This document shows positions 4,178 to 52,119 of a DNA stretch of 64,000 nt, one piece after another. Source of the stretch: Octopus sinensis. Its lineage: Eukaryota. Both the position numbers and the translations under genes were made by a program. The notes beneath the pieces were generated by a model that ran no database searches, was not told the origin of the DNA, and saw only the letters and a list, made by a program, of their open reading frames with translations. Position 1 is the stretch's first letter, and every line of letters begins with the position of its first letter. The DNA is taken from contig NC_043002.1 of NCBI RefSeq assembly GCF_006345805.1, forward strand, positions 70,928,001 to 70,992,000, read 5' to 3'.

Positions 4178-4458
4178 TCAACAATTGAGGATAAAATTAA
4201 TTAATTAATCAATTTCACCAAGTATTCAGTATGCAAAGGGACCATTTAAGGCGAATTCAAATTATTACATTATATAAAAGGGCTTAGTAAAATAAATTAC
4301 TTTGCCGCATACTGAACTCATTAGAAATAGCAGCTAAAAAACTTTTTTTAAAACTTTTCCAATATTAAAGAAAACTCTCTCATATAGTGTTTGCTCAATT
4401 CAACTCACGAAAGTATGGGGGTAGAGACATTAAATAAAAAATCAAATGCAAGGTTATT

Positions 4459-4510
4459 TGAGAACGTACGTTTCAAGATTGTCAAAATCGACACTTCTAT
4501 CATCAGCTCA
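4459..4510 (-). ncRNA. Minimal type-I hammerhead ribozyme motif
   Basis: Minus strand TGAG CTGATGA [stem II including TGTC/GACA] GAAA CGTACG TT CTCA: stem I TGAG/CTCA, palindromic stem III, GUU cleavage triplet. Confidence 0.7.
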
Positions 4511-4667
4511 GAACTCCTGGTTGGATTTGAAACACTGAAAGTGGGAGCTACCCTTTCGGCTTGTTTATCGCTTCTGAAGATCTGCTCGAAACTAACAGTG
4601 CCAGCAAATTCAAATATGCAAGCGAAGAATTTCTGCTCTCCCCTATATATATATATATATATATATA

Positions 4668-19740: not shown

Positions 19741-20269
19741 ATATATATACACGAGTGAGTGGACAAACGTAAGAAAAGGGGGCTCAACACATTTAGTAGA
19801 AATTACATTAATTATTTAAAACTGTTTGATTCGGTCCCAAGCTATTTCAAGTTTCATATGCCCTTAATGGAAGCCCGGCTTCTTCAGATATCTGGTGGGT
19901 CTGCGAAACTTGAAGTAGCATGGAACGGGATCGAACTTTTTTAAAGATTTGATACATATATATAGTATATATATGTATTTTACACATCACCACCTCCTCA
20001 ACCCTTCACCTCCTTCACCTCCCCCATCCCATACATCCTCCCCTCCAGCTCCCCCGACTCCATCCAATCCCCCCTCCACCCTGCATCCTCCACGGATCCA
20101 CACACTCCACCCTAACCTTCCTACGCCTACCCCATCTTCACCCAACCATTCCTACTCTCCTCCCCACACCTCTGCACCCCCTCTTCCTGACCCCACTCAT
20201 CCCACCACCCCGCTTCCTCGCATTGTTGTCACTATACCCCCCAATCTCCCCCCTTTCAAAATGTGACCG

Positions 20270-20470
20270 CGTGTGTACCGTTGGCGATTTTTTTTCCTCT
20301 GTCTTCCCTTCTCTGGATCTTTCCTTCTCCTATGTTTCCGACAAAGAGCTCTGCTCGAAACGTTAAACCCTCCTTCTTTCCTTCTTTCCTGAGCGTTCAA
20401 TAATACTATATATGTTCCATGTCCACGCGTTGTTGTGTTTTTTTGTGCTTTCTTGTTTGGATTAACTATA
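20270..20470 (+). mobile_element. PLE-type terminal repeat with a hammerhead-like motif, ending at (TA)n
   Basis: GTTT CCGACAA A GAGC-TCT-GCTC GAAACGTT AAAC; homologous to 19535-19735. Confidence 0.6.
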
Positions 20471-20512
20471 TATATATATATGCATATATATATATACATA
20501 TATATATACATA

Positions 20513-20553
<41 letters not shown>

Positions 20554-20565
20554 TTTATACATATA

Positions 20566-20718
20566 TAGGCGTAGGAGTGGCTGTGTGGTAAGTAGCTTGC
20601 TTACGAGTCAGATGACTCCGAGTTCAGTCCCAATGCGTGGCACCTTGGGCAAGTGTCTTCTACTATACCTTCGGGCCGACCAAAGCCTTGTGAATGGATT
20701 TGGTAGACGGAAACTGAA

Positions 20719-20751
<33 letters not shown>

Positions 20752-20960
20752 GTGTGTGCGTGTGTTTGTCCCCCAACATCGCTTGACAAGAGATGCTGGT
20801 GTGTTTACGTCCCCGTAACATAGCTGTTCGGCAAAAGAGACTGATAGAATAAGTACTAGGCTTACAAAGAATAAGTCCTATGGTCGATATGCTCGACTAA
20901 AGCCAGTGCTCCAGCATAGCCACAGTCAAATGACTGAAACAAGTAAAAGAGAGTAAAGAG
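20566..20960 (+). mobile_element. SINE family B
   Basis: TAGGCGTAGGAGTGGCTGTGTGGTAAG head, GGCACCTTGGGCAAGTGTCTT, internal (GT)n, family tail. Confidence 0.9.
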
Positions 20961-21410
20961 TATATATAGTCAATTAAAAAACACCGAACAATAAAATTAA
21001 TAATAACAGACAAGAAGAAGACGTGTACAAGGAATGTATTAGTTTCACGCTGAGTAAAAAGAGAAACATACATACATACATTATGGCTGCCCCCTCGTTA
21101 TCGAGTATAGCCATTGCACCAAGCTTCACTGTTACTGGTGCTGTGATCGAATGTGACATTTTAGCCCAGCCAAAGATCTGCAATGTCTTGTACATACATA
21201 CATATACATACATACATACATACATACATACATACATACATACATACTAATATAAATACATACATGCATACTAATATAAATACGGACAGAATTTTAAGAA
21301 CGTTTTATTAGTGTCTAGCATAGGTGAAATAGACCTATTTAGGTACATTCATATATGTATATATATATATTTATAACAGTATAAAATACAATTATAATTA
21401 ATGGCACAGA

Positions 21411-21517
21411 AATTTCTCTGGAAATAGACGTTAAGTCCATCTATCCGCGTGTAAATTTTAGTGATGTTTTGAAGTGGTTAGACGGCATTAGCGTCTATTT
21501 TCAACATATAGGCAGAG

Positions 21518-21521
<4 letters not shown>
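21411..21521. repeat. Short imperfect inverted repeat before (TA)n
   Basis: AAATAGACGTTAAGTCCATCTA (21422-21443) versus TAGACGGCATTAGCGTCTATTT (21479-21500), 18/22. Confidence 0.65.
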
Positions 21522-21578
<57 letters not shown>

Positions 21579-21579
<1 letters not shown>

Positions 21580-21900
21580 TATTTATTTATGCGCCCTTTT
21601 CAAGCCTAGCCAGGCTCATGGGCCCAGTTTCCCGTTTCCCGGTTTCTATGGCGTATGTGTTCCCCCCAGCTGGAAGGGACGCCGGTACATCGCAGTGTTA
21701 CTCCAGAAACAGGAAGAAAGAGTGAGAGAATGTTGGGGCCAAAGAGTACAACAGGGGTCGCCACCACCCCTTGCCAGAGCCTCGTGGAACTTTTAGGTGT
21801 TTTCGCTCAATAAACACACACAGCGCTCGGTCTGGAAATCGAAACCGACATACTCCTACCGCGACTCCGCTGCTCTAACCACTGGGCCATTGCACCTCCA
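21579..21900 (-). mobile_element. tRNA-derived SINE, family C1 (V-domain-like body)
   Basis: Minus-strand head TGGAGGTGCAATGGCCCAGTGGTTAG (A box), GGTTTCGATTTCC (B box), body GTAACACTGCGATGTACCGGCGTCCCTTCCAG, (TAAA)n tail. Confidence 0.85.
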
Positions 21901-21982
21901 TACACTCACACACACACACACATATATTATATATATATATTATATATTATATATATATATATATATTATATATATATATAAT

Positions 21983-22027
<45 letters not shown>

Positions 22028-22308
22028 TAATTAATAAGGGTGAGAGAATTAAATACTAATTTAATAGCATATCTATTCAACACCAAGTGGCCCGGTGCTT
22101 CGAGAAACCTGGATTATTATAATATTTTATAATATATTACAATATTTATACAAAAATAAATATAAGAGAATGGTCACTATGTGGCTCATTCTAGCACTAG
22201 AAAATCCAAAAGGTTTCAACCACAAAAATACATGTTTCCTATGAAAGTCAGTACGATTGTTAGCTCACACGAACAGGGCAAATAAAAAAATAACAAAAAT
22301 ACAGATTA

Positions 22309-22390
22309 TTTTGGGACAATTGTTTCGCTATTAATGAATTAAATGTAATTTTACTTACAAAAAAACCCACTTGTAGCTCCTCAGCCAAAA
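22309..22390 (-). ncRNA. Type-I hammerhead ribozyme, unit 1
   Basis: Minus strand TTTTGG CTGAGGA GCTA-[43 nt]-TAGC GAAA CAATTG TC CCAAAA: intact core, GUC site, palindromic stem III. Confidence 0.88.
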
Positions 22391-22844
22391 CTATCTGGAT
22401 GAAATCCACTCAATCACACGCCAGATTTTACCATAACGATAAATACACGTGTGGTTCAATTTATTACATCCGACGTTATAATTCAAATGCCCTTACCAAC
22501 AGCGCGCCAAACTTTCACGGAAACAAATACTACATTTATAAATAAATGTAGCATAATTATAATTAATTAATAAGGGTGAGAGAATTAGATACTAATTTAA
22601 TAGCATATCTATTCAACACCAAGTGGCCCAGTGCCTCGAGAAACCTGGATTATTATAATATTTTATAATATATTACAATATTTATACAAAAATAAATATA
22701 AGAGAATGGTCACTATGTGACTCATTCTAGCACTAGAAAATCCAAAAGGTTTCAACCACAAAAATACATGTTTCCTATGAAAGTCAGTACGATTGTTAGC
22801 TCACACGAACAGGGCAAATAAAAAAATAACAAAAATACAGATTA

Positions 22845-22926
22845 TTTTGGGACAATTGTTTCGCTATTAATGAATTAAATGTAATTTTACTTACAAAAAA
22901 ACCCACTTGTAGCTCCTCAGCCAAAA
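22845..22926 (-). ncRNA. Type-I hammerhead ribozyme, unit 2
   Basis: Identical to 22309-22390, offset by 536 bp. Confidence 0.88.
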
Positions 22927-23156
22927 CTATCTGGATGAAATCCACTCAATCACACGCCAGATTTTACCATAACGATAAATACACGTGTGGTTCAATTTAT
23001 TACATCCGACGTTATAATTCAAATGCCCTTACCAACAGCGCGCCAAACTTTCACGGAAACAAATACTACATTTATAAATAAATGTAGCATAATTATAATT
23101 AATTAATAAGGATGAGAGAATTAGATACTAATTTAATAGCATATCTATTCAACATA

Positions 23157-23194
<38 letters not shown>

Positions 23195-24639
23195 TCCATA
23201 CATACATACCTACACTCACAGACTTTGATATAATATAATAATCTCAGAGCGTCTTCTCTGTGTATGATTTGTCACCTCGGGGTTGCGGAGTAAGACATTT
23301 GTCAATCATGGTATGTGATGGGATTAGATCAATAACCAGCCTTTGATGAAGCAAGTTGCTTATTTACATATCTATGTCTCCGCCTCGCTATATATACAGA
23401 CACGTATAAACATATACAGACACATATAAACATATAGTTTGTATTTCAAATATGTTTTTATTCATATCCTTTAAATTATCATATAGTTAACAATCGTTGG
23501 ATGAGCAGATTTGTTTTTGTTTTGCTTCTTGTTTTTTTTTAGTGTCTAGCAAATAATTTGAAACAGAGAGGGATTCTGATCTACAACAATCTTTACTGCC
23601 GACTTCTTGTTTGATAAGAAGACCTCAGATGTTGTATAAGAGAAAGTAATGATATTTGATAACGTTCATGAGATTGTCAAGTACATTAGTGATTGAATAA
23701 AGATGGAAATGAGTATGACCGTAAAATCGACCGTCGACATTTTACTCAGCTACGTTCAACAACAATGTTTTCTATTAGAAATATTTCTGTTTTGCCTCAA
23801 AGGAATAGTAAGATATTTGCATCACTTGAGAGCATTTCCTCTTACATTACTTAACGCATTCTATAACGACAATTCTTTTGACGTATTTCAAACTATCACT
23901 ACTATATATAATGGCATATTTCAGCATAAAATAATGAAGCTTTTACATATTCTATGGTATTTGACGTCAATATTTACTGACAGAATACATTTCACAAGAA
24001 TATCGCCATCCTATATCAGTTAGATTTGTTCACTATTACATCATACTCTCGTCACTGTTTATATTATTTCCTTTTACCCGGTCTCTATATTGTCTTCGAT
24101 TTCCAAAATTTTTATGACTTATGGATTTCAACATACCATTACATCTGCCGTTTTCCTTACATTCCGTTAATGCAACAGTTTGACCATTCGTAGGTCTTGA
24201 ACTTATTGTCCGTATACTAGTATGTTTAACTATCTGCTCACAGACAAACGAATAACTCTTAGATGTGTTTCAACGATTGGTATTCAATCAATGGAAATGC
24301 CGATACATAGAATTAGCATACTCGCGATTGAGAACTCTCCGTACGTTTGAAACCATTAACGTAAAAATGATTAGTAATATCAGTATGGCGTAGTGTGAGA
24401 GAAAGTTCGTTGTTTGGAATAGAAAGCCCGTTCACCGGCGTTCCACAAAGTGCTTTCCAACCACTTTCAATGTCAATGATATAATAATAGGCACTCGTTC
24501 AACAAGACACAATTGTGACGCAACGGGGGAAACATATTTGTGAAGAAAATTTCCTAATCTTTGGCACAGACAACGTGCACCACAAAACACACACATACAC
24601 ACGCACGCACATAAACACATACACACACACACACATATA

Positions 24640-24682
<43 letters not shown>

Positions 24683-24875
24683 GAGTGTGTTGGTTGGGTG
24701 TCTATGTGTGACCGTGAGAGAGAGAGAGAGAGAGAGGAGACAGATAGAGGGAATGTGTGTGTGTATATCTGTATATAAATGCATACATATATACATATTT
24801 ACACACGCATACGCAGCGCGCACGCAGACACACACACCTATGTATAGACAAATAGCAATAGATGGTTTGAGTGGA

Positions 24876-25176
24876 AAGAACAGCCTACAAGACTGGAATG
24901 TTCTCTCTACACACATATGCACAAGTATATGCACAACCGTTTCAAAGGTTACAAATCATAGCATAAAAACTACGCAGGTATCCTTCATATAGTCCCGAAA
25001 CATTCATATAAGAGCAATCTCACACACTCGCTCACCATATCCTACGCTCGTCTGGTTTGGAACTATGATATTTCTAAATCCGTTAGTCGATAGCCATTAT
25101 TACACATACAATGCATCACTCGTAAAATATAACACGAAATCTAACAAGATTTACAGTTCTTTTATATTAAATCCAT
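24876..25176 (+). repeat. Unclassified ~300-bp dispersed repeat (inverted copy at 33261-33560)
   Basis: ACGCTCGTCTGGTTTGGA and ACTCGTAAAATATAACACGAAATCTA occur as reverse complements at 33.3-33.4 kb. Confidence 0.85.
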
Positions 25177-43390: not shown

Positions 43391-45974
43391 GGCTATTTTC
43401 TAAGTAACCAATTTAAAAGTAGTAATACATGCATACACACATACATATATACATACATACATACATACATACATACATAAATGCATAAATACATACTTGA
43501 AGACGTATGTGCGTACATACATACATATATTCGTTCATACATACGAACGTACGGACGTACATACATATATACATTCATACGTATATACAAGCATATATGT
43601 ACATATGCATGAGTATGTATCTCTATGTGTTTGTGCTTACGTGTGTGTGTGCGTGTGTAAGTGCGTGCGTTTGTGATTGTGCGTGCGTGTGTGTGTGTGT
43701 GTGGTGTGTGTGTGCATGTAAAGACATTAAAGCATTATATTAGTTGTTTCGTTAGTTTCGTCGATGATTCATACAGAATAACTCCGCAGCAGAAAGACAT
43801 TTGAAATAATGGAAGGATAAGGTCACTGCAAATTCAAAATTGATAACACTTTCAATTTTTGCCTGTATACACACACACACACACATACACACACACACAT
43901 ATATATATTAATATATGTGTGCTTGTGTGTATATATATATATGTGTGTGTGTGTGTGTATGCATGTATATAAATATATATATACGTGTGTATATAAATGA
44001 ATATATATGCATATGTACATTCATATATATGTCTATGTGTATCTAATTATATATATATATATATATATATAATTAGATACACACTTATTTATATATATAT
44101 ATATATATACACATATATGCATCTATATATGAATATATATATGATATATGAATACACACACATATATATATGTATATATATATATATATATATAAGTGCG
44201 TATTCATTTCCCCGATCAGCAATGCACACGCTCTTCTAAATATACTGAAAAATTAACTTGAGCAACCATCGACCTGTAACCCTTGAAAATATTTATAGAA
44301 CACTAAAGTGATTTCCTGGATATTAACTATGAATGTGAAGAAGTTTAATTATCTGCCTTCCGTCTCGTGTCTTTTAATTTTATATATCTCTTATTCTCTC
44401 TATGATCCTTCTTTGCTCATAGGTGCTTTGTCACTATTGTATGTGTCTCTGTGTCTCTGTCTGTCTCTCTATTCCACCACTTGCTCTCTCTTCCTCTCTC
44501 CCCACTTTGTCTTCTGTCTAACCCTTTCTCTCATGCTGATACTTGATACCTGTCTTTGGCTGATCGCAGTTGGTATTATCTCTATTGGAACGCTTTTCTT
44601 CACATTAGGTCATGTGAACTGGGAACAATCTCCGGCAGATGCTTCCGTTTCCTATATTTCATGAGACACTGAAACCACATGCATTTCCAAACCAGATTCT
44701 ACCTATCATCTCCTAATCGCCTGTTCATACATCCGGTCGTCCCCACAAGCACCCCTTCCCTCGCTCCATACACATTGATCATCTCTGTTGCATAGGTTAA
44801 TATTCACACTTAAAATGCTGTGTGACAATAGTAACTGCTACATTCCACTCTCCTCTGCATTTACCTCTCACATCTGGATATCATCAACGAGGAATTCTAG
44901 TTGTTATGATTCAAAGTACCACTCTTCTATAAGTCTATAAAAATACATTTTCTTTCCTCTAATACCAAACAGCATTCCCTACACAGATTGATATTTTAGA
45001 ACTGAAAACAACATCCTCCATGACTTCAGTTCTCTCAACAGTTTTTTTCTCTAACTTAAACATATTGTACACAGACCCTGCCAGTGTAGAAATTTGCAGT
45101 GCTCACCTCCTTACACCAGTAAGTTTCATTGCTAGCATACAGACATGCTAGACACTACTTATCTCTTTCTGACTTCAAATCCTAACTTCTAACAAACTAT
45201 CAGTGTTTCTTCACCTCTCGTTTTCTCCAACCACTTCATAAACGCAACTTTAAATCACACGCATATTCTTGTTAACGTCTCCTACTTTCGGGAACACATG
45301 GCCTTCAATAATCGAAACTGAAGCATTTCAGTGCTATCAATCTCCAGAAGCTTGACACCTCATGTGCTTCACTCCTTAACCATCATTGAAAGGTAGGCTG
45401 CTGACTGAAAAAATCCTCTTAGGCATTTCAAACAAACCAGGACTGCAATTCTGTTAAGTGGCTTCCTCATAACGTCGGTACATTAGTTCAAGGAACCTGG
45501 CCTGCCATGCTTCTAGAAAAGCATTTTCCCCTATAGATGGATAAGTTTTGTCTATCTGAACCACTCTTGCAACTCAGAAACCGCAAGCAATCTCGACTCT
45601 CAAAAGACGAGTGATTCTTTAATTTCCTATCGAAAGGAGCATTTCAAGTTCTTAAAATTTCTCCTTTCTTCCCCTTCTCTATCATGATACCAGTATATGC
45701 AGTATTCCCTTGCAGAATGTCCATATATGTAGATATTCTGAAATTATATATACGCGTTACATACTACCTAGAAGGTACACAATGTGACTCAATACAGAAA
45801 AATAGCAAAAGCGAACACATCGACATTTGTGCCACTAACGAACAACCCAAATTCAGAATTTTTCCCCTCTATAATTCCAGGGACAATGCAACCTGCGTAT
45901 TAACAAACACTCATATTTTATCGCAGAACCCCTTTCTTCAATGCTTCCACTTCCAATACAGATGACTCTACTAC

Positions 45975-46023
45975 CAAGATCTTAGAATATACAAGATCTT
46001 AGAATATACAAGATCTTAGAATA
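45975..46023. repeat. 17-bp tandem repeat, ~3 copies
   Basis: CAAGATCTTAGAATATA at 45975, 45992 and 46009. Confidence 0.95.
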
Positions 46024-46840
46024 ATACCCACGCAAATATTAAAACGATCTTTTTCAGAATAGTCGCTACCCATGAATATATTTAGAACAATTCCAGTCAC
46101 TACTGCTACAACGACAACAGGTCACTTTTAGGTTACTTGACCATTATAGAAGATTCCACGAATAGTCTACTACTGTCATACCACTCACATCTTCTTCTTC
46201 TTCTTCTTCTTCTTCTTCTTCTTCTTCTTCTTCTTCTTCTTCTTCTTCTTCTTCTTCTTCTTTTTCTTCTTCTTCTTCTTTTTCATCTTCTTCTTCTCCT
46301 TCTTCTTCTTCACCGTCTCCTTCCTCAGCGGCTGCTGCCTCTGCTGCCTACGCAATCAAAATCCAAAACCAACATTTGTCTGCACCCATATTAACTATTT
46401 CTTTAGAACTGATACTACCGACTCACCTTCACAAAAGTAAAAGAAAGAGAGACAAAGAAAAGGAAAATGCGCTACCGATTTGAAGACTATGGAAATATTT
46501 AAGAAAACATTTCTTTTCATTTTTCTTCAATTTAATTGACTTCTTGCTTCACTCTAAGTCGAAAAAGTCTAAAAGCCTGAAACCGGTACTAAAATGTTCT
46601 TCTAGATAAAACCATTTAGCATTTTCTACATTGTCTTATTTTCTTTATACATATAAACTCGTGTGTTGCTTTTCAACAATACGCGATTGCTATGAACATT
46701 TTTACTCCCTTACTTTTTACTTCCTCCCCTTCGATTTTTCCCTTATTGAACGGTCATTCTAATAGCTCTTTTGTCTTAATAATGGTTAATTACAAAGTAA
46801 TTTCCCTTTGTTTAACGGTCATTTTCATAGCATATTTCGA

Positions 46841-49860: not shown

Positions 49861-50334
49861 AATATAGCCGGAATACACAAGCCCGAATACTCTCTTCAAC
49901 ACAGAAGCCGACAGTAAAAAATGTGGATATGCGATTATCTAATTGAGGGATCAGAGTTTTCCTTCAAACAGGGACAACGGTTTACAGTGAAAAGCAACTT
50001 CACATGTGCTTCGGAGAATCTGATATACACACTAACCTACTCTGGGTGTCAAGAGCAGTACATAGGCCAAACAAAAAATAGTTTGCGTAAAAAAATGGCC
50101 CTGCACAGATCCCAGATAAAACTTCTCCAAAACAGAAAAATAACATTCAGGCAACACATAGATACTTGCTCCAACAACAAAACACCAAACTTCAGGATTT
50201 TCCCCCTCTACCAATTCAGGGACGATACAACCTCGAACCAACGAATAAGTAAAGAAACTCTCTTTACAACAAAATATAAACCTCTTCTGAACGGGTCTAT
50301 GACAAACGAAATATACACCTCGGCTTTAGAATAA
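49860..50334 (+). pseudogene. PLE GIY-YIG endonuclease fragment (5'-truncated element)
   Basis: ORF 49921-50334: NFTCASENLIYTLTYSGCQEQYIGQTKNSLRKKMALH...HIDTC...KE...KYKPLLN; begins directly after (TA)n with no RT upstream. Confidence 0.88.
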
Positions 50335-52119
50335 CACAAATCCACATGCAAATATTACATTCCTAAGAATCCATTACAAATCAGCCCCAATCACAGCTAT
50401 AACCCACAACGTGCCAACTTTAAGTCATACAACACCTCACTACTTCCATTCATTCATATTCTCCCTCCTCTTTCTTCTTCTTCTTCTTCTTCTTCTTCTT
50501 CTTCTTCTTCTTCTTCTTTTCTTCTTCTTCTTCTTCTTTTCTTCTTCTTCTTCTTCTTCTTCTTCTTCTTCTTCTTCCCCCTCTTCATCATCTATATACA
50601 CACACATGCAGAGTAAGAGAGAGAGAGAGATAGGAAAACAGAGAGAGAGAGAGAGACGCGTGGCGCAGTGACTGGGTGTGTTGCACCCACGATCGATATA
50701 TCATGTTTTCGATTCCCACGGATGTGATTTTCAATGACGTATTCGCAATGAGAATAGTACATAAGAGGCTGTTTTTATTTAATGCTGCTTCTAGTGCAAA
50801 TAATGAATTTTTTTTTCAGCTGGGCGGCTGCACCCAATACCATTCAATACTTATTCACTAATTCTTACACACCGAATGGTATAAAACTATGTTTAACCAT
50901 GTGATTATACACCAGTGACCTAGCGAAATGAGGCTAAAAGGCATTAGCTGTTGTCCAGACGATTTCTGCCCCGCCCGTCCGATATATGTTGTGTTTTGAA
51001 TGTACACAATGTGTATAAAAGAGATATGTTCTCCGGACGATTAATAGAGCAAATTTTCTTCCAGCAACGTGTTTACATGAAATAGTTCATATTGATGGTT
51101 ATTTCATTTCCATATTGCATCTAATACCTCTGACGGATACATAAATATATATTTTTATACTTACAACAACTGTTTAAGTAAATTATATCGTAATGTCGTA
51201 GTAGAGAATACAGTAGAAAATTTCTCACATTCCTTCCACATTAAAATAAATATCTTAAATGTTTTAAGATATGTTTTAATAATTGCTGCAACGTTCATAC
51301 AGTCACCACGGGCGTAAGAAAAATAGGCCATATACGTTGCTTTTTGAAAGCTTGCTACAAACTCTCCAAAGATCTTATTCAGCTTTCTTGTAAGATTAAA
51401 TTTGCTCCAAAAATAATTAAAGACAAACGCCTGTGACGAATAATATAATACACAGATCTGTATGAAAAACTAAGTGACATGTAAGTTTTGTGTGTGTATT
51501 GAAAGTTTCCACGAAAACAAATTGATCAATGTGCACCATTGCACATTACTTCTAAGAAAAATCAAGATCACAGGCACATATAATATTCATCAAAAAGACA
51601 TCATGCCTTTTGATAGCGTATATGACACAAGGTTCACAGAGAAGTACATCATTTCTTTATAACTGGGCAATGTACATTTTATCACTTGGATTAAATCATG
51701 TGTTTGGGTGTGTATGTATGTAAGTGAGCAGGAATGTGTGTAAGCTAATATATATGCACACACAGCTATCGATCTTTTCCGCCCAAGAACTTTTTACCTC
51801 AATATTTACACATTATTATCTTTTTTTATCTGCTTCGAATTTTACTGTTAAAGACTACATACAGAGAAGAGTGGAGCCGTTTTGGTTCCTGACTTCGAAA
51901 TTGCAATATAGAACTAACCATCTATTTAAGTTTTGAATTTCATACCATGAAGCCCGCCGACAGCTTTATTGTGAAGAGATATATTATAAATAGTTATAGT
52001 AGATTTATAGCGGTATTGACTGCTATTTCTAGACATTTAAAGGCTTTTGCAACCCTCTCCGTTATAATTGTGATTTATTCACAATTGTACACACGCACAC
52101 ACACACACTCACACACACA

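Follow-up and report, generated by a model that had tools for sequence, protein, structure and literature searches.

A young non-LTR retrozyme copy in the Octopus sinensis genome, probably inserted by Penelope-like machinery from an RNA circle

The 64,000-nucleotide stretch of Octopus sinensis DNA analysed here (the window) contains one young copy of a non-LTR retrozyme, RZ1, which a Penelope-like element (PLE) has likely placed in (TA)n from a re-ligated 536-nt RNA circle. By the features examined, i.e. tandem type I hammerhead units that are non-coding and dispersed in a genome where PLEs coexist, RZ1 is a non-LTR retrozyme, and we consider it very probable that the family is mobilised by PLE machinery. 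The original prediction, of an ORF-free tandem family of the retrozyme type mobilised in trans by PLE-type machinery, is supported by the insertion anatomy. A link between retrozymes and PLEs has been proposed earlier (PMC7229834; 10.64898/2026.07.22.740005), and the copying mechanism of retrozymes has been described as remaining to be elucidated (10.64898/2026.07.22.740005). To this we add a large clade of long-stem hammerheads, a retrozyme whose insertion anatomy is of PLE type, the finding that its template was not the cut linear monomer, and a specific PLE family as candidate partner. A search of the literature on cephalopod retrozymes, octopus hammerheads, hammerhead-Penelope associations and Neptune/target-primed systems returned no paper on RZ1, which may already have an entry in Repbase, Dfam or supplementary files.

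The insertion in the window (Table 1) is a repeat of 1,129 bp, in which 565 of 570 positions match at a period of 536 bp, the sole period between 520 and 549 to exceed 300 matches. Four sites (22052, 22094, 22099 and 22184) distinguish unit 1 from unit 2, the third piece differs from unit 2 by one base, and (TA)n lies on both sides, where any target duplication would be masked by the TA tracts. The longest stop-free frame in the repeat is 83 aa, and a Pfam search of its unit-1 copy gave no match. The predicted layout of about 2.1 head-to-tail, ORF-free units with few substitutions, set in (TA)n, is thereby confirmed. This copy belongs to the youngest RZ1 subfamily, and the nearest other locus differs from it by 0.7%. 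Directly to the left of the insertion, at 21580-21900, lies a SINE-like repeat of very high copy number. No host gene or promoter for the insertion was found in the window, where a scan of 85 of the 95 frames returned one weak match. Parts of the stretch are contained in 20 of 22 sequencing-run records (9 studies, 7 organism labels), none registered as RNA, and contigs from four runs (three only guessed to be RNA) match pieces of the unit, being uninformative on strand, level and circle.

Table 1. Features of the RZ1 insertion, in window coordinates
Feature	Position	Strand	Remarks
Whole insertion, RZ1 family, 2.1 units	22026..23154	-	single arm, without inverted arm
Unit 1, 3'-most in RNA sense	22026..22561	-	period analysis
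Unit 2	22562..23097	-	period analysis
Partial third unit, 57 bp, variable 5' truncation end	23098..23154	-	
Fixed end, site 1: TCACCCTTAT then TAATTAAT, abutting (TA)n	22026..22045	-	
Site 2, ~22153, boundary blurred by AT-rich sequence	22142..22158	-	inverted arms of other copies start there
Type I hammerhead, unit 1, predicted cut 22315/22314	22304..22396	-	
Type I hammerhead, unit 2, identical to that of unit 1, predicted cut 22851/22850	22840..22932	-	
Monomer of 536 nt bounded by the predicted cuts, candidate circle	22315..22850	-	prediction only
(TA)n target tract, left	21922..22025	.	sequence
(TA)n target tract, right	23155..23191	.	sequence

On the minus strand each full unit reads UUUUGG-CUGAGGA-(51 nt)-GAAACAAUUGUC-CCAAAA, with CUGAGGA starting at 22384 and 22920, GAAA at 22326 and 22862, and C17 at 22315 and 22851, so that both the proposed type I hammerhead per unit and its predicted cuts fall where they had been placed. 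The parts are a stem I of 6-7 bp plus a distal helix, CUGAGGA, an extended stem II with G10.1-C11.1 present, GAAA, a 2-bp stem III with palindromic ACAAUUGU, and GUC. In a 121-base search the Rfam model Hammerhead_1 matched 22309-22390(-) with 28.5 bits and an E value of 1.3e-5, under its gathering score of 34, and a search over 20,000-25,000 returned no hammerhead, only microsatellite-driven miRNA matches. The fold of the hammerhead region has a z of -3.63, and none of 200 shuffles was as low. Two details of the original prediction were revised. The 43 nt within the 4-bp stem II, taken to be an unusually long loop II, are predicted to form further stacked helices, i.e. an extended stem II, and the assignment to the minimal PLE hammerheads is contradicted by the length of stem I, the G10.1-C11.1 pair and the long stem II. 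The account of min-HHR in PMC4209133 gives a stem I of 4-5 bp, a stem II of 7-8 bp and an unpaired base between 9 and 10.1, whereas RZ1 has longer stems I and II and no extra base at that place; what it shares with min-HHR is the type I topology and a palindromic stem III suited to dimer cleavage. A further hammerhead-like motif (CTGATGA...GAAACGTACGTT) is present on the minus strand at 4455-4516 of the window, within a (TA)n-flanked stretch.

By comparison of aligned copies, the hammerhead core and stems are under constraint. Among the RZ1 copies compared, 6 of 1,810 letters differ at the 11 core positions versus 1,725 of 62,462 (2.8%) elsewhere, counts that treat related copies as independent. 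The only core position differing between RZ1 subfamilies is N7 (G/C/U), which is free in hammerheads. Between RZ1 and its sister family RZ2, 9 of 24 stem pairs are changed on both sides (5 in stem I, 4 in stem II), as against 0-3 in slid controls, and 92.7% of cells pair across 12 sequences, a test that comprises essentially two lineages, and so few events, on a structure drawn from the window. Genome-wide, the pattern CTGANGA-N40-62-GAAACAATTGT occurs 4,973 times, versus 15 for the reversed pattern, and the motif is therefore not due to chance.

Throughout the genome (2.72 Gb searched, in 13,516 contigs), RZ1 is a dispersed, ORF-free, hammerhead-bearing multi-copy family with the marks of retrotransposition. 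Its terminal 28-mer has 1,820 exact matches, exact head-to-tail unit junctions number 983 and exact (TA)4-to-site-1 junctions 592, with controls of 0 in each case, and 129 matches were obtained among 39 scored of 1,197 candidate places. RZ2 (unit ~525 nt, 1,855 candidate places) is homologous to RZ1 round the whole unit, and long-stem-II hammerheads ending in GAAACAATTGT occur in at least 8 further ORF-free families, often with inverted arms in (TA)n (e.g. L176-L195); among 20 stretches examined, none had such a hammerhead joined to a PLE frame. Long arrays of 18 units (C1:95539400-95548800, L124-L125) and 13 units (C22:27624469-27631803, L073) each still end in an inverted site-2 arm. Single or 1.x-unit inserts might in principle have been multiplied later at the DNA level, by unequal crossing-over in the manner of satellites (a route discussed in 10.64898/2026.07.22.740005), or the tandem might be an artefact of assembly. 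Nested variants in long arrays and the duplication of some RZ1 loci themselves (L118, L122/L123) fit growth in DNA. However, even a 1.x-unit insert requires that more than one unit was read, inverted inserts often have several units in each arm, and the four differences between the window units, together with the 983 junctions genome-wide, make assembly duplication unlikely. We thus hold this explanation to be extremely improbable, and DNA-level growth may have added to the longest arrays without being their origin.

The ends of these insertions were surveyed at all places of the first 100 matches on contig C1, giving 43 stretches with 78 arms, a sample that was picked by the site-1 motif and hence misses inserts with only a short site-2 arm, and that includes the duplicated loci L122/L123 and two L118 copies. 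Site 1 (window-equivalent 22026) is the start of 43 arms and site 2 (~22153), about 127 nt away, of 31, the other 4 being pieces of interrupted arms. The expectation that other copies would be ORF-free tandem arrays is borne out by the junction count, but the permuted ends that had been expected with it are not seen, since 74 of 78 arms start at the two fixed sites. BLAST starts of site-2 arms scatter over 85-133 because the sequence is AT-rich. The usual arrangement is an inverted pair, in which the site-2 arm stands head to head with a site-1 arm and the outer ends each abut (TA)n; the window copy does not use site 2 as an end. Both starts are oriented alike relative to the hammerhead strand, so that, if the fixed ends are priming sites, the hammerhead strand would be the RNA. 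Readable target duplications of ~11-23 bp are found at L134, L136, L145 and L149. The homologous pair of sites is used in sister families too, and families more distant from RZ1 have their ends at two sites joined to TA, 100-140 nt from each other.

Two fixed sites, an inverted truncated copy and a (TA)n target are the PLE 'tail' signature. Two internal start sites bounding a 'tail' have been demonstrated in vitro for a PLE (PMC11167929), and inverted truncated copies with a one-end tail (PMC8557442; PMC3846280) and a (TA)n bias (PMC8557442) have been given as PLE marks. As in the PLE insertions of these accounts (PMC11167929; PMC8557442; PMC3846280), RZ1 has a one-end tail, a head-to-head inverted truncated copy, partial tandems and an AT-rich or (TA)n target; unlike them, it is without an ORF and its tail measures ~127 nt versus 30-40. 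The anole PLE began at a non-homologous AC-rich site (PMC11167929), but the start sites of RZ1 are similar to its (TA)n target.

In the 28 paired-arm loci on C1 (values taken by hand; without L123, L128, L145 and the second copy of L118), arm lengths correlate (Spearman 0.47, p 0.012), and the arms end in phase within 30 nt at 8 loci where 3.1 are expected (p 0.01), which suggests coupled synthesis or joining by local complementarity. Arm 2 reaches beyond arm 1 in 13 of the 28 and therefore needed its own reverse transcription; fold-back copying, considered as the sole origin of inverted arms, is impossible at these loci and was rejected.

The same arms bear on the nature of the template. From the 5' end of the cut monomer, site 1 lies at 289 nt and site 2 at ~162 nt, and a linear monomer would thus limit arms to these lengths. 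The predicted cut site is crossed by 49 of 74 arms, more than one unit is present in 31 of the 74, with up to 18 units, and the 20 nt surrounding the cut (q280-299) contain 3 ends, with 2.8 expected. Since the cut is crossed and ends do not pile up at it, the cut linear monomer was not the template. A cut monomer held by stem I, with the reverse transcriptase jumping the nick, is also very improbable. Stems I and II are predicted to be paired across the junction (probability 0.95-0.98), and other reverse transcriptases are known to jump from end to end, but ends do not accumulate at the cut, and ~175 unit copies contain no insertions at q288-291, while the 3 deletions that the CCC run shows are close to the 1% background.

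We lean towards an RNA circle as the template, which is the simplest account of the arms, the variants and the clean cut site. Units within a locus diverge by 1.6% in the same orientation (341 pairs) and 1.0% when inverted (151 pairs), as compared with 4.0% between loci (C1 sample plus 21 best-match loci). Of the 47 multi-segment loci, 13 have rare variants that are fixed in one arm and the other alike. Folding predictions give the 536-nt circle a stable structure (z -7.2, 40 shuffles) in which stems I and II are present. Unit variants are partly shared in arrays L011, L074 and L124, and the window and L015 have two within-locus variants in common in different unit arrangements, so that a single pass round a single molecule does not explain everything. 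Of 227 within-locus variants, 38 turn up again at other loci, and the most frequent of these stand at homopolymer edges.

The same PLE enzyme, starting at the same two sites, could instead have copied an uncut linear multimer, the hammerhead being slow, protein-assisted or used elsewhere. This would account for the read-through and the clean cut site as well as a circle does, and the variants of arrays are only partly shared among units. In vitro, uncut RNA was the main substrate of an anole PLE, and hammerhead mutants were inserted normally (PMC11167929), so that cleavage is not necessarily required for a PLE to insert. A linear multimer cannot give rise to daughters longer than itself, but different subfamilies contain arms of 5, 13 and 18 units; locus-specific variants fixed in all units and both arms point to repeated passage through a single-unit template; and the strong constraint on core and stems suggests that cleavage matters. 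We regard the uncut multimer as rather unlikely. The original prediction had read the layout of more than two units as rolling copying of a circle, and greater-than-unit inserts are indeed the rule, but an uncut multimer would explain most of them too.

The genome contains several PLE families with unbroken frames of 770-810 aa (RT + GIY-YIG), all ending in (TA)n, and the families read carry a CxxC linker of the Neptune/Nematis type; 60 of 29,673 candidates were scored, so other PLE families may exist. From its terminal sequence, a family with a 784-aa frame (RT + CxxC + GIY-YIG, e.g. L222) is a likely donor of the enzyme. Its tail terminates with TTTTCACCCTTATACATA(TA)n; in RZ1, RZ2 and RZ3 the end is formed by TCACCCTTAT together with 8-14 bases that vary. 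The resulting terminal match, of 10-13 nt, is equalled in length by 6, 0 and 3 of 1,000 shuffles for the three retrozymes, and among the six PLE family ends compared only this one matches over 10-13 nt (next best, 81 of 1,000 shuffles), for a decamer match that is short and was seen first and tested afterwards. The decamer TCACCCTTAT lies within 16 nt of (TA)6 1,059 times on the forward strand, with a control of 19 (overlaps inflate the figure for the reverse strand). Of 13 distinct decamer loci read, 8 belong to the 784-aa PLE family and the other 5 to the RZ clade. Ten copies of this PLE family are 98.3-100% alike, indicating an age similar to that of RZ1. Beyond the decamer, nhmmer detected no similarity of the retrozyme to any PLE locus compared, and the tail is ~127 nt long in RZ1 versus ~35 nt in the 784-aa family.

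The 781-aa, 775-aa, 811-aa, 782-aa and 'C' PLE families, also considered as partners, were rejected, having neither a significant terminal stretch nor nhmmer similarity, as was a family without the CxxC linker, which is old, broken and without similarity to the retrozyme. Some PLEs carry hammerhead-like motifs of their own. At L222:4444-4485 (784-aa family) and L062:5350-5385 (781-aa family) these read UUGAAAA and UUGAUAA, with a palindromic stem III and with core positions 3 and 8 occupied by U and A, a swapped C3-G8 pair, because of which descriptors requiring CUGANGA would miss both. The 3' UTR of L061, of the 775-aa family, holds a minimal hammerhead with a 2-nt loop III palindrome, and this family has two termini ~30-40 nt apart, i.e. 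a classic tail. The window itself contains decayed fragments related to the 784-aa PLE at 45790-46675 and 49874-50592 (72-79% DNA identity).

That the unit is simply what 5' truncation left of an autonomous PLE, its ordinary pseudo-LTR, is largely refuted, and we give it next to no credence. RZ1 does have PLE-type ends, and pLTR-derived retrozymes have been reported in Xenopus (10.64898/2026.07.22.740005). However, the units close on themselves head-to-tail with no ORF between, and tblastn with two PLE proteins located fragments of PLEs in just 5 of the examined stretches that bear a retrozyme; in the four of these that were read, the fragments lie outside the element, past a (TA)n tract. The unit is in the UTR of none of 50 PLE loci, two of which hold separate insertions, so copies of RZ1 are not all attached to a PLE ORF. 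Where a retrozyme stands beside an intact PLE (L063, also L251), it went into an adjoining TA tract by an insertion of its own, and no direct retrozyme-PLE chimera was present among the stretches examined.

RZ1 resembles the animal non-LTR retrozymes of two accounts (PMC7229834; 10.64898/2026.07.22.740005) in its non-coding, low-GC tandems with one type I hammerhead per unit, its range from dimers to long arrays, its thousands of motifs and the presence of PLEs in the same genome, and its short stem III with a palindromic loop is as in the axolotl retrozyme families described there. The unit of 536 nt is above the 170-400 nt of one account (PMC7229834) and within the 51-972 bp of the other (10.64898/2026.07.22.740005). 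In contrast to the retrozymes of both, stem II is extended to 51 nt, and the two fixed starts and inverted arms are absent from the accounts compared; moreover, the link of RZ1 to its partner is a terminal decamer, not pLTR homology, and its circle is a prediction only (PMC7229834; 10.64898/2026.07.22.740005). Another parallel is MRC1 of Chlamys (PMC8557442), a non-autonomous PLE passenger with head-to-tail multicopy inserts and 3'-end similarity to an autonomous family; MRC1, as described there, belongs to green algae and is without a canonical hammerhead, and the stretch shared by RZ1 with its candidate partner is only 10-13 nt.

The following course of events would be consistent with these findings. 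A tandem copy would be transcribed from the hammerhead strand, the hammerheads would cut, probably as dimers via the palindromic stem III, and the 536-nt monomer would be ligated into a circle, as in other retrozymes. The PLE endonuclease would then nick (TA)n, with a first reverse transcription priming internally on the RNA at site 1 and, in many cases, another at site 2 from the other target end, in keeping with the fixed ends observed. Synthesis would pass the cut site and go round the unit to differing extents, and a head-to-head junction would link the two cDNAs, giving the anatomy described above. Circles as templates of PLE copies longer than one unit were proposed in 2014 (PMC4209133); 8 of 9 Xenopus retrozyme dimers, for their part, failed to cleave in vitro (10.64898/2026.07.22.740005). 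A broader and more tentative proposal, which may well prove wrong, is that a whole clade of long-stem hammerheads (~5,000 motifs in at least 8 families) parasitises one PLE enzyme via the conserved UCACCCUUAU, by twin target-primed rolling reverse transcription that starts at two fixed sites of a circle.

Which enzyme copies animal retrozymes, and whether circles are its template, has hitherto been a matter of proposals and not of demonstration (PMC7229834). With a candidate partner whose frames are intact and which resides in the genome of RZ1 itself, the question is opened to the existing in vitro PLE assay. If the template is a circle, RZ1 would represent a route for circular RNA back into the genome, and if the broader proposal holds, the clade would provide a natural, defined case of a circular RNA templating retrotransposition.
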